DNA from: a virus
Lineage: Duplodnaviria > Heunggongvirae > Uroviricota > Caudoviricetes
IMG/VR virus record: IMGVR_UViG_2541047865_000003
DNA: 35,749 bases
Direction: 5' to 3' (one strand)
The notes under the pieces were generated by a model. That model was given only the letters and a program-made list of their open reading frames with translations, did no database searches and was not told the origin of the DNA. This document shows, one piece after another, positions 25,781 to 28,440 of the stretch (positions within the stretch are counted from its first letter, which is position 1; each line of letters opens with the position of its first letter). A program made the position numbers and the translations under genes.

Positions 25781-26027
25781 GAGCGTCTCCTTGTGTAGTG
25801 GAGACAGCATCACAAATGGTCGGGGAAAGGGATTTTAAACAGCGTTAATAGTGAGGATGCAGACGTGAACCGCATGATGGCTTTGAAAGAACGACCAGCC
25901 CGGTGCGGTAACACCAGGCTGGTCATCAACCCACAGGTATGCACTGTGAGCCGACCAGGGTTCAGTCAGTCTCGCGAGACCAGACTAGCCTGCCATATTT
26001 TCATTGATTGCAAAAGGCTTACGGATA

Positions 26028-26798
26028 ATGAAAGAACAATCTTTACCCATCGTCCCATGGATTGGCGGTAAACGTCGTCTGGCGAAGCATATTTTACCAT
26101 TGTTTCCGGCCCATACCTGCTATGTGGAGCCGTTCTGCGGGGCAGCTGCGCTCTATTTCCTAAAGACTCCCAGCAAGACCGAAGTCATTAACGATATCAA
26201 CGGGGAACTGGTGAACCTCTATCGGGTGGTCAAGCATCATCTGGAAGAATTTATTCGCCAGTTCAAATGGGCGCTGGTCAGCCGTCAGATTTACAAATGG
26301 TTGCAGGATACGCCGGAAGAAACGCTCACCGACATTCAGCGGGCGGCCCGGTTCTACTACCTGCAGAAACAGGCATTTGGCGGCAAGGTCGCCGATCACA
26401 CATTCGGTACCTCTACAACCAGTGCGCCGCGCTTCAATTTGCTGCGTATTGAGGAAGAACTGTCGATGGCACACCTGCGCCTGTCGAGAACGCTGATAGA
26501 GCATCTGGACTGGCACCAGTGCATAGAGCGATATGATCGCCCGCATACGCTGTTCTACTGTGACCCACCGTACTGGGGAACGGAAGGCTATGGTGTGGAG
26601 TTCGGGCTGGAAAACTATGATCACATGGCAGATTTAGCGCGAAGGATCAAAGGGAAGATGATTATATCAGTGAACGATATCCCGGAAATGCGGCAGGTAT
26701 TCAACGGTCTGAACATGCAGTCGGTTGATATCAGCTACAACCTTAAGGTAACAGGCAAACCCAGCCCGAAGAAAGAGCTGGTAATTTGTAATTTTTGA
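26028..26798 (+). CDS. DNA adenine methyltransferase (Dam-like, N6-adenine)
   Basis: SAM-binding motif (FCGAAALYF) and catalytic DPPY motif. Start chosen at MKEQSLPIVPWIGGK…; the track ORF begins 24 nt upstream. Confidence 0.75.
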   Translation: MKEQSLPIVPWIGGKRRLAKHILPLFPAHTCYVEPFCGAAALYFLKTPSKTEVINDINGELVNLYRVVKHHLEEFIRQFKWALVSRQIYKWLQDTPEETLTDIQRAARFYYLQKQAFGGKVADHTFGTSTTSAPRFNLLRIEEELSMAHLRLSRTLIEHLDWHQCIERYDRPHTLFYCDPPYWGTEGYGVEFGLENYDHMADLARRIKGKMIISVNDIPEMRQVFNGLNMQSVDISYNLKVTGKPSPKKELVICNF

Positions 26799-26845: not shown

Positions 26846-27379
26846 TTAATCCTGCCTTGGACAAGTCCAATAATCATTATCTGGCTCTGGTGAATAAGCT
26901 TTCAAACAACCTGCTCGCGGGGTCTTACCATCATCTGTCATAGGAACTTTTTCCTTATCAAGTTTCACGGTCAGGTCTCCACCAGGAACATCCGTTTTAT
27001 CGAAAAAAACAGCCTGACATGCTGATTTAGATATTTTCACTTCGTGGGCATTATTTGATATGAACAAATAACAATTATGACCAGAGGCTATGTAGTCACT
27101 TGGAATATTATTTTCGTCTTTAATATGAAACTGCACCGTTGTCACCGGGCGTTCGCTATCCTCGGATACTTCGACTTTTTCAAAACTGTCCGCGTACTTA
27201 TCCAGGCCGGGGAGTTGTTGGCGAATAAACGGTAATTCGCGATTTACAACCGGATTATCTGTTTCAACGCTAAAAACCGCGTGCTCCTTAGCTGTGGTGG
27301 ACGTATCAGCAGGATCGGTATTATCTCCACACCCAGATAAAACAAATATCAACGGTAAAAATAATTTGCGCATAGTCAT
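26846..27379 (-). CDS. Lipoprotein of unknown function (177 aa), AT-rich moron downstream of the repressor
   Basis: Signal peptide MTMRKLFLPLIFVLSGC with lipobox; mature part has four more Cys; AT-rich codons; RBS ~35 nt after the repressor stop on the same strand. Confidence 0.65.
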   Translation of the reverse strand: MTMRKLFLPLIFVLSGCGDNTDPADTSTTAKEHAVFSVETDNPVVNRELPFIRQQLPGLDKYADSFEKVEVSEDSERPVTTVQFHIKDENNIPSDYIASGHNCYLFISNNAHEVKISKSACQAVFFDKTDVPGGDLTVKLDKEKVPMTDDGKTPRAGCLKAYSPEPDNDYWTCPRQD

Positions 27380-27414
27380 GTCCTTATACCTCTAATGTTC
27401 TTAATAGGAACAGA

Positions 27415-27825
27415 TTAACCCGTATTTTTTAATCTTTCGAACGCTGCGGACAGCTCCTTAAGCTGTTTTTCCATATCAATCATTCGCTGTTTTTCCTCAG
27501 CGCCTCGCAGCAACTCTTTTCGCACCTCTGGCTCCAGTTGGTTGAGCAGCTCCAATAACTTCAGATCAGACTGGTTGAAATGCTGCTCCTGATTAGCTGG
27601 CTGTGCTTTCTCTACCCCAACAGCTTCCCCTTTACCAGTAAGTAGCCAATCTATTGATATGTTCAAATGGGTGCTTAGCGCAACAAGAGCCTCTGCATTA
27701 GGTTCTCTCTCTCCACGCAGATAGTTTTGAAGTGAGCGATATGGAATTTTTGACAAGTCTGACAATGCCTTAATTGTCAGACCCTTAGCATCCATCGCTT
27801 CGCGCAATCTCTCTTTTATACTCAT
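27415..27825 (-). CDS. Prophage repressor (XRE-family HTH)
   Basis: Start at MSIKERLREAMDAKGLTIKALSDLSKIPYRSLQNYLRGER… (HTH), C-terminal coiled-coil-like region. Divergent from the early operon across an ~88-bp promoter/operator region. Confidence 0.7.
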   Translation of the reverse strand: MSIKERLREAMDAKGLTIKALSDLSKIPYRSLQNYLRGEREPNAEALVALSTHLNISIDWLLTGKGEAVGVEKAQPANQEQHFNQSDLKLLELLNQLEPEVRKELLRGAEEKQRMIDMEKQLKELSAAFERLKNTG

Positions 27826-27841
27826 TTGAACATATCTCAAT

Positions 27842-27869
27842 TTGACATACCCGTTTGGGTGCGTACAAT
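27842..27869 (+). promoter_or_regulatory. Candidate sigma70 early promoter (TTGACA-16-TACAAT) with overlapping operator dyad
   Basis: TTGACA at ~27842-27847 and TACAAT at ~27864-27869, upstream of the Ner-like gene. Inverted repeat TTGGGT(N11)ACCCAA straddles the -10; a further ACCCAA lies ~20 bp downstream. Confidence 0.5.
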
Positions 27870-27913
27870 AGACCCAATAGAGTACATCATAACCCAACAG
27901 GAACACGGTGCAT

Positions 27914-28138
27914 ATGAACAAACAACAAGTTCGGGCACGGCTGGTTGAAAGAGGCAGTAGCTTGCGCCAGTTCGCGCTTAACGCGGGCTATGAGCCACGA
28001 ACAGTCACCCAGGCTGTCAGCCGCTGGGCAGGCAAAAGCGAACTTCCACGCGGTCGTTTGACTTATCGGATTTTGCGAGACCTTTCGGTCGCAATAGGCA
28101 AAGAAGTTACCCCCGGCATCCTCAAGGAGGCGTCATGA
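27914..28138 (+). CDS. Ner-like DNA-binding early regulator
   Basis: …LRQFALNAGYEPRTVTQAVSRWAGKSE… resembles the Mu Ner core; first gene of the early operon, divergent from the repressor. Confidence 0.65.
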   Translation: MNKQQVRARLVERGSSLRQFALNAGYEPRTVTQAVSRWAGKSELPRGRLTYRILRDLSVAIGKEVTPGILKEAS

Positions 28139-28440
28139 GTAAACCAAATACATCAAGCTCAGGTACCCGTATTTTGCGTGTCCTTAAGGCTTTACGCGGT
28201 CACGCTCTGAACGGTGTTTCTAACGGCGAGCTGGCGTCAGCTCTGGGCGAGTCCCCGGCGAATATCAATCGGGCGCTCAATACCCTTATCGAAGAAGGAC
28301 TGGCCCTGAAACTGGATAACGGGCGTTTTGCCCCAGGAGTCCAGCTCTTACAAATCGCCATGGCGCACAGTACCGAAATGGCGCGGGCGCAGGATCGTAT
28401 CAATGAAATTAACCAGCGTGTTATGGCTGGTAGTCGCTAA
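28135..28440 (+). CDS. Winged-helix/HTH DNA-binding protein (IclR-N-like), 101 aa
   Basis: …VSNGELASALGESPANINRALNTLIEEGLA… HTH-like segment; ATGA overlap with the Ner-like stop. Confidence 0.5.
   Translation: MSKPNTSSSGTRILRVLKALRGHALNGVSNGELASALGESPANINRALNTLIEEGLALKLDNGRFAPGVQLLQIAMAHSTEMARAQDRINEINQRVMAGSR

Follow-up and report, generated by a model that had tools for sequence, protein, structure and literature searches.

Candidate repressor operators at the early promoter of a BcepMu-like transposable prophage

The control region and its relatives

We analysed the 88-bp gap that separates the repressor gene from the first early gene in a 35,749-nt stretch of tailed-phage DNA (IMG/VR record IMGVR_UViG_2541047865_000003; hereafter the window). 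The region is the immunity and early control region, or lysis/lysogeny switch, of a BcepMu-like (Bcepmuvirus-type) transposable prophage. Its features are listed in Table 1. Downstream of the gap follow genes for a small helix-turn-helix (HTH) protein, an IclR-type HTH protein, a DUF3102 protein, a DDE transposase and a DNA transposition protein/ATPase (Pfam, PHROG). This combination of BcepMu-type DDE transposase, transposition ATPase and an early operon running away from the repressor gene marks a Bcepmuvirus-like phage. Transposase identity is 68% with BcepMu, 57% with B3/Fc02 and 93% with Escherichia phage PhiKM, which is classified in Bcepmuvirus.

The repressor matches Pfam HTH_3 (3e-12) and Phage_CI_repr (2e-6), and its N-terminal domain matches in the PDB the N-terminal domains of ImmR, DdrO and P22 C2, binders of short palindromes. 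An HTH_3/Xre repressor gene divergent from a small HTH early gene is the arrangement of a Cro/CI-type immunity region. Only HTH_3-type families were matched in Pfam, with no match to the Mu repressor/MuA-type winged-helix domain. Neither was there a Pfam match to Peptidase_S24; the C-terminus is short and helical, and the protein falls outside the LexA-like self-cleaving class. Since it lacks an S24 domain, induction probably does not proceed via RecA-stimulated self-cleavage.

Identical DNA is present in two phage records, and DNA of at least 80% identity in 62 of 5,426 complete Escherichia coli genomes. The same prophage group also occurs in Pantoea, Serratia, Pseudomonas and Azotobacter. 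Literature searches on BcepMu operators and phage PhiKM yielded no operator study for this lineage.

For comparison, we assembled a panel of about 180 related loci (numbered with an L), 21 collected via the early protein and 160 via the repressor. Repressors of the window's family contributed 74 distinct gaps, in 14 recognition-helix groups, and nine further loci had another, unrelated N-terminal repressor family (family Y). Gaps were aligned on a conserved motif matching window position 27884, and most relatives retained the length of 88 bp. For footprinting, nothing was gained from the close E. coli relatives L002-L004, their gap being 96% identical to that of the window.

Table 1. Features of the repressor/early-operon control region (window coordinates)
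Feature	Position	Strand	Remarks
Repressor gene, 136 aa	27415..27825	-	N-terminal Xre/HTH_3 domain, C-terminal helical domain
Immunity module	27575..27878 (about)		Repressor N-terminal domain, O3, O2, Pe, OA and most of OB
O3 ACCCATTTGAAC	27661..27672	-	Weaker operator-like site; repressor codons 52-55 (T-H-L-N)
O2 ACTCATTTGAAC	27820..27831		Weaker operator-like site; over the repressor start codon and codon 2
Divergent control region	27826..27913		88-bp gap from the repressor gene (-; start codon, CAT on the + strand, ends at 27825) to the first early gene (+; ATG at 27914)
Pe -35 hexamer TTGACA	27842..27847	+	Read from the sequence and by promoter scan
Candidate operator OA ACCCGTTTGGGT	27849..27860		Fills the -35/-10 spacer; perfect 4-bp arms
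Pe -10 hexamer TACAAT	27864..27869	+	16-nt spacer from the -35; promoter scan
Candidate operator OB ACCCAATAGAGT	27872..27883		Over the predicted start site
Shared block ACATCATAACCCAACAGGAACACGGTGCAT	27884..27913		30 bp found in every immunity type
First early gene, 74 aa	27914..28138	+	Small HTH protein in Ner/Cro position

The early promoter

The original prediction, made from the sequence of the window, had placed an early promoter with the hexamers TTGACA-16-TACAAT upstream of the first early gene, and this part is well supported: Pe lies far beyond chance, and the promoter of the transposable-phage early operon is real and was placed correctly. On either strand of the whole window, no other site reaches 11/12 matches to sigma-70, and matches of at least 11/12 had a probability of 0.0018 in 5000 dinucleotide shuffles of the gap. 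Both TTGAC and the TAnnnT hexamer hold their position in nearly all groups despite replaced surroundings. The -10 was found at the window's position in 9 of 13 group representatives, the sole recurrent sigma-70-like site within 420 nt. Transcription is predicted to start at about 27876-27877. In the B3-family phage Fc02, RNA sequencing detected an early promoter upstream of ner that fires when a thermosensitive repressor is inactivated (PMC9936078).

Candidate operators flanking the -10 hexamer

Two adjacent palindromes, OA and OB, flank the -10 of this strong promoter, with their centres 23 bp apart and the hexamer between them. We consider it about 70% probable that both are operators under repressor control. 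OA is the only ACCC-N4-GGGT in the window and sits in an imperfect 18-bp palindrome (27846-27863). The wider pattern ACYC-N4-GRGT matches at just two places in the 35.7 kb, OA and OB.

Support for this interpretation comes from the comparison among recognition-helix groups. Throughout the 14 groups, a palindrome with a 4-bp centre between 4-bp arms occupies the promoter spacer; its mean arm symmetry is 0.74 (0.25 by chance). Its sequence differs among them: the window has ACCCGTTTGGGT and L014 ACTCGTTTGAGT, Pseudomonas has ACTCGTTTGGGT with CGC/GCG flanks, the YSSLQNW groups have TCCCATTTGGGA and GTTCCCGGTTGGGAAC, and the LSYSSLQNWV group has GCCCATTTGGGA. A symmetric switch of the outer bases, from A..T to T..A, marks the YSSLQNW groups, and the flanks also vary in symmetric pairs. 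The same types recur at other places of the locus. In the YSSLQNW groups TCCCATTTGGGA in the spacer is accompanied by TCCCATATGGGA at the repressor start codon and TCCCAATTGGGA at codons 52-55, and these three places read ACYC..GRGT in the YR[ST]LQNY groups and ACAC..GTGT in L123.

For OB, the right half follows the operator type in every group (GGGA/GAGA versus GAGT/GGGT/AGGT). A full palindrome is present in some of them, such as ACCCCATTGGGT in L142 and GCCCAGTTGAGA in L092, the latter a near-duplicate of that phage's own OA. From these alignments, we infer that operators share the conserved form ACYC-N4-GRGT, a palindrome of 12-18 bp, to which the repressor would bind as a dimer.

Changes at operator positions 3 and 10, (C,G)/(T,A), had first been taken as compensatory and proved mostly one-sided in the window's group (L002, L004, L042, L044). 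Both positions were treated as degenerate (Y/R) and left out of the co-variation.

The original prediction had read the repeats as a single operator dyad, TTGGGT-N11-ACCCAA, straddling the -10, with a third ACCCAA as an additional half-site; one repressor dimer would then occupy the dyad. The motif itself is present, with TTGGGT at 27855-27860, ACCCAA 11 nt further on at 27872-27877 and again at 27892-27897. Its arms are complementary at 6/6 positions, this complementarity is kept at 5.3/6 in the window's own helix group, and the family-Y phage L011 carries a 20-bp palindrome, TGAATAAGTACACTTATTCA, centred on the -10. However, a perfect 6-nt inverted repeat with a gap of at most 15 nt appeared in 22% of dinucleotide shuffles (P = 0.22) and is not significant alone. 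Threefold occurrence of a 6-mer, counted together with its complement, within 50 nt had P = 0.012 in shuffles; ACCCAA occurs nine times in the window, counting both strands, with two in the gap.

Across the 14 groups, the pairing of spacer positions 7-12 with the six bases after the -10 had a mean complementarity of only 0.41, as opposed to 0.74 for OA. It was high only in the window's own group and fell to 2-3/6 in other helix groups, whereas the spacer palindrome persisted. In L014, L042 and L044 the left arm is TTGAGT, and ACCCAA shows no matching change. The half-site centres would lie 17 bp (1.6 turns) apart, which is unusual for a dimer of the Xre/434/P22 type. Moreover, the block that contains the third ACCCAA stays unchanged when the operators turn to TCCC/GGGA or the repressor domain is replaced. 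A single dyad is quite unlikely on this evidence. The dyad is the right half of OA together with the left half of OB. The repeat stands; a role as one operator over the -10 is not supported. The regulatory consequence would be the same with OA and OB, because the repressor would still occlude the early promoter.

The promoter could also be real and the repeats a product of chance or base composition, with no operator function. The shuffling result for the 6-nt repeat would fit, and so would the count of consensus matches in the window, which equals the chance expectation. Against this, the palindromes hold their position in 14 groups and change symmetrically, and co-variation with the repressor domain is seen at three to four distinct places, synonymous codon positions among them. 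We regard chance as next to negligible here.

Several observations weigh against OA and OB as a pair of operators. The two ACYC-N4-GRGT matches in the window are what chance predicts (1.6), and only their location is remarkable. The mean arm symmetry of OB is only 0.35: its left half is often unconserved and only some groups have the full palindrome, and in the Pseudomonas groups only the right half fits the consensus. That consensus was derived post hoc from the same family. The 14 groups share ancestry, which leaves few independent co-variation events (about 4-6). The window's own group keeps the dyad (5.3/6) as well as OA (3.4/4), so the two arrangements are separable only across groups. 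Finally, O2 and O3 are both degenerate in the window's phage.

Operator-like sites inside the repressor gene

Sites resembling OA also lie within the repressor gene. In the window, where residue 2 is Ser, the left half of O2 fits the consensus and the right half is degenerate. In other groups O2 is a perfect palindrome and codon 2 co-varies with the operator type, TCCCATATGGGA giving Gly2 and ACACATTTGTGT Cys2; the second residue of the repressor switches among Ser, Gly and Cys. The right arm of O3 is also degenerate in the window, owing to a change of Gly55 to Asn, and is the same as the right arm of O2. Elsewhere in the family, codons 52-55 (T/S-H/Q-L-G) read ACCCATTTGGGT, TCCCAATTGGGA or TCCCATTTGGGC, in step with the promoter operator.

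The arm symmetry of O3 over the groups is 0.82. O3 matches the OA of its own phage better than that of permuted partners (P = 0.0006), and wobble positions alone gave P = 0.045. A pattern search of the window returned only O3, O2 and OA, with 0.17 matches expected. Among 20 representatives (<85% identity), Leu54 is encoded by TTG in 19, and Gly55 ends in T, A or C depending on the operator type. The other synonymous third positions of the N-terminal domain are saturated, at about 1.7-2.0 bits for four- and six-fold codons. Constraint at Leu54 and Gly55 amid saturated synonymous sites indicates selection at the nucleotide level, and points to an operator-like palindrome embedded in the codons of the repressor's DNA-binding domain.

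The repressor gene could carry its own operators, at the start codon/codon 2 and at codons 52-55, co-evolving with specificity across at least 14 groups and fixed in position even when the domain is replaced. They would form a looped autoregulatory scaffold shared by a widespread set of BcepMu-like prophages of enterobacteria and pseudomonads. We give this proposal even odds.

O2 and O3 could instead act in RNA, the initiation region of the repressor transcript (27836-27820) pairing with codons 52-57 (27672-27656), which would hide the AUG and tune repressor translation. A 17-nt inverted repeat with 16/17 matches does join the start-codon region (27820-27836) to codons 52-57 (27656-27672). The long-range helix appears in both the minimum-energy and the centroid fold of a 239-nt model transcript (z = -3.5; 0 of 200 shuffles as stable), and minimum-energy folds predict pairing of the initiation region with codons 50-60 in 12 of 20 representatives from several groups. 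Furthermore, the change of Gly55 to Asn in the window's sub-lineage shifted O3 away from OA and towards O2, whose right arm it now shares; the 16/17 repeat results from this.

However, two copies of a similar palindrome are automatically complementary. Pairing is not predicted in 8 of the 20 representatives, and the model transcript rests on an assumed 5' end. In the Pseudomonas groups O2 is ACTCATTTTTTC and O3 nevertheless keeps the full ACTCATTTGGGT matching OA, its GGGT arm having no partner in the initiation region. We judge a role in RNA possible but on balance doubtful, and it would concern O2 and O3 alone, leaving Pe, OA and OB as they are. An Rfam search of 27300-28300 (E <= 1) found no match.

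The immunity module

A natural replacement of the repressor domain is seen in prophages of the L005 type from E. coli, which matched the query at its two ends only. In a sliding profile, identity between the window and L005 drops to 33-63% within the module (33-53% at 27650-27878), compared with 70-100% on either side. In L005 the early protein is 96% identical to that of the window and the C-terminal third of the repressor is conserved, and the N-terminal domain is of a different HTH type. The gap diverges from the start codon to about 27878, with homology resuming at about 27879, and OA is replaced by sites of the type TTATTCA-N3-TGAATAA. For the other repressor family, sites lie with their centres about +3, +32 and +55 relative to the repressor start codon; in the window, O2, OA and OB are centred at +2.5, +31.5 and +54.5.

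Since the site positions survive the change of domain and the early protein is nearly unchanged, the sites go with the repressor domain rather than the early protein. OA, OB and O2 keep fixed positions, follow the recognition-helix group in sequence type and are replaced outright when the domain is swapped. Repressor control of the early operon, as first proposed, is probable and is supported by the divergent Xre-type repressor gene and by repressor-specific palindromes overlapping Pe. The whole gap had been put forward as the likely determinant of immunity specificity. This fits 27826-27878, which is swapped in the heteroimmune prophage, but not the third ACCCAA, which lies outside the swapped module.

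The small early protein in the Ner position might itself be the ligand of OA and OB. A Cro/Ner-type protein normally binds the same control region, and this one is an HTH protein whose best fold match is EnrR, of the Ner family. But OA, O2 and O3 change with the repressor's N-terminal domain, whereas the early protein stays 96-100% identical (window versus L005 and L010); the co-varying sequences include repressor codons; and the part of the region that is conserved along with the early protein is the block at 27884-27913. This makes the early protein a very improbable ligand of OA and OB compared with the repressor.

Two unrelated N-terminal domains, HTH_3-type and Phage_CI_repr-type, were found fused to the same C-terminal helical domain of about 55 aa (27415-27590; L005, L010-L018).

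The shared block and the repressor's promoter

Downstream of the module, 20 of 20 representatives had the consensus G(T/A)ACATnnTAaCC(a/c)AnnnGGAACA, whatever their operator type and whichever of the two repressor families they carried. Within this block, the third ACCCAA corresponds to AACC(C/A)A. Lying in a universal block, it is not a determinant of repressor specificity, and its proposed role as a repressor half-site was not upheld.

The block contains a likely ribosome-binding site (AGGA, 27899-27902). On the minus strand it has a conserved, -10-like TAnnnT (27891-27886), which lacks a -35 and a TGn extension and is partly imposed by the anchoring pattern. The block may be a site for the early protein, carry signals for transcription of the repressor gene, or serve as a 5' untranslated region with the ribosome-binding site.

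The gap holds no sigma-70-like site on the minus strand, and within 420 nt the relatives share none at a constant position. Lysogenic transcription of the Fc02 repressor gene starts from a distal promoter, pC1, and runs antisense to ner and gene 10 (PMC9936078). By analogy, the promoter of the window's repressor gene may lie elsewhere.

In L022 (Pseudomonas psychrophila), the shared block is tandemly duplicated upstream of the early gene, as GAGA ACATTCTAACCAAAT and GGGT ACATTCAAACCATG. This arrangement suggests that the right half of the operator plus ACATnnnAACCA may be a binding module in its own right.

The first early protein

The first early gene had been described as Ner-like. Its position is that of ner, and its predicted fold is compatible. 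At the sequence level, its scores remained below the cut-offs of both HTH_35 (16.7 bits versus 25; E = 0.007) and TIGR04111, or BcepMu_gp16 (29.1 bits versus 34, the match covering only positions 3-34 of 55). With HTH_35, no more than 2 of 14 homologues reached E < 0.1. BcepMu gp16 and Fc02 Ner each score 88 bits with TIGR04111, and some sources label homologues of the early protein as "BcepMu gp16 family". Sequence and profile searches of the PDB with the early protein found no Ner relative, and pairwise BLAST against Fc02 Ner was insignificant.

A single-sequence AlphaFold model was too poor (predicted local distance difference test score, pLDDT, 58.6) and an alignment-based model was used (pLDDT 94.3). 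Its best Foldseek match was EnrR (probability 0.96, template modelling score 0.62-0.65, E = 0.15), with generic Cro/CI HTH proteins close behind. EnrR, of the Ner family, is 45% identical to Mu Ner (PMC9023278). The early protein is therefore only weakly Ner-like by sequence, and somewhat better described as Ner-compatible by its modelled fold.

Comparison with known switches

In Mu, the Pe/Pc switch separates a leftward repressor gene from a rightward early operon encoding the small HTH protein Ner and the transposition proteins A (the transposase) and B. Repressor operators O1-O3 lie across the early promoter, and the repressor gene is regulated from the same region. The Mu repressor has a MuA-like winged-helix domain, and its operators are long repeat arrays with an IHF site. 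The window resembles Mu as a transposable phage with a repressor gene divergent from an early operon led by a small HTH gene. It differs in its Xre-type HTH repressor (HTH_3), and in having the switch at an internal position, with late genes on the other strand, whereas that of Mu lies near the left genome end. No IHF consensus was seen by eye in the window's control region.

The OR regions of lambdoid phages, 434 and P22 (cI/C2, PRM/PR, cro) share with the window divergent genes, a Xre/Cro-CI-type repressor domain –P22 C2 being homologous– and short palindromic operators about 23 bp apart that overlap the early promoter. In contrast, the window's repressor has no S24 autocleavage domain and its C-terminal domain is a short helical segment. 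Moreover, its operator positions extend onto the repressor start codon and into the repressor gene, and no PRM-like promoter is recognisable.

BcepMu, with gp17 (repressor) and gp16 (HTH), is the closest named lineage and has the same divergent layout. Its gap (L188) has a near-consensus -35 in TTGACA-17-CATACT, flanked by the inverted repeat GATTACC-N19-GGTAATC. The repressor, gp16, the operators and the gap length (127 bp) differ from those of the window; the regulatory module was exchanged.

The lysis/lysogeny region of Fc02/B3 consists of repc, a 106-bp gap with predicted overlapping promoters pC2 and pE, and ner; its operators are undefined in that study (PMC9936078). Like the window, it has a short gap between a divergent repressor gene and a small HTH gene in the Ner position, with which the early operon starts. 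Inverted repeats, AAAGTCCC-N8-GGGACTTT plus a third GTCCC, surround a near-consensus -35 in the Fc02 gap (L189). The Fc02 repressor is shorter and, with the sequences set side by side and not formally compared, has no evident similarity to that of the window. A distal repressor promoter of the pC1 type is known in Fc02, whereas none is predictable in the window. BcepMu and Fc02 share ATTCACACC after the -10, and the inverted repeats of both gaps are candidate operators.

Overall, Mu-like, B3/BcepMu-like and lambdoid switches are known to have this layout, and the element is of an ordinary kind.

Proposed mechanism and its meaning

At the functional level, Pe would drive, as a strong sigma-70 promoter, the early operon with the Ner-position HTH, IclR-type HTH and DUF3102 genes, transposase A and the transposition ATPase. 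Repressor dimers would bind OA in the spacer and OB at the predicted start site, as palindromes of about 18 bp with a 12-bp core. The spacing of 23 bp is close to that of adjacent operators in lambda OR, and as there it would permit cooperative binding, here possibly through the conserved C-terminal domain. With OA and OB occupied, RNA polymerase would be shut out of Pe. O2 and O3 would probably serve autoregulation or looping.

These results offer an operator map, open to testing, for a group of transposable prophages that is common but unstudied. The map delimits the immunity module and shows which stretch of the region lacks immunity specificity. A further lesson is that a plausible dyad can arise merely from two operators side by side. 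Repressor codons 52-55, with their constrained synonymous sites across the family, clearly exemplify a regulatory element within a coding sequence. In outline, the element is what is expected at such a position in a Mu-like phage, and the layout of its sites differs from the one first proposed.

Other observations at the locus

GenBank record OM835952.1 ("Klebsiella phage KP12 clone KP12_2"; L001) is filed under Vequintavirinae, yet it is 100% identical to the window over the 761 bases compared. It is probably a co-induced or contaminating prophage contig.

A variable slot lies between a Dam-like methylase gene (26004-26798) and the repressor gene. It holds a lipoprotein gene (26846-27379) in the window, a "nucleoid-associated protein" gene and a hypothetical gene in L003 and L004, and other open reading frames in L005. 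It looks like a slot for accessory genes (morons).

Finally, an open reading frame of 67 codons is predicted on the minus strand (28200-28403), antisense to the IclR-type HTH gene. In Fc02, the antisense genes olg1 and olg2, opposite gene 10, are co-transcribed with the repressor gene in lysogens and exclude superinfecting phages (PMC9936078).

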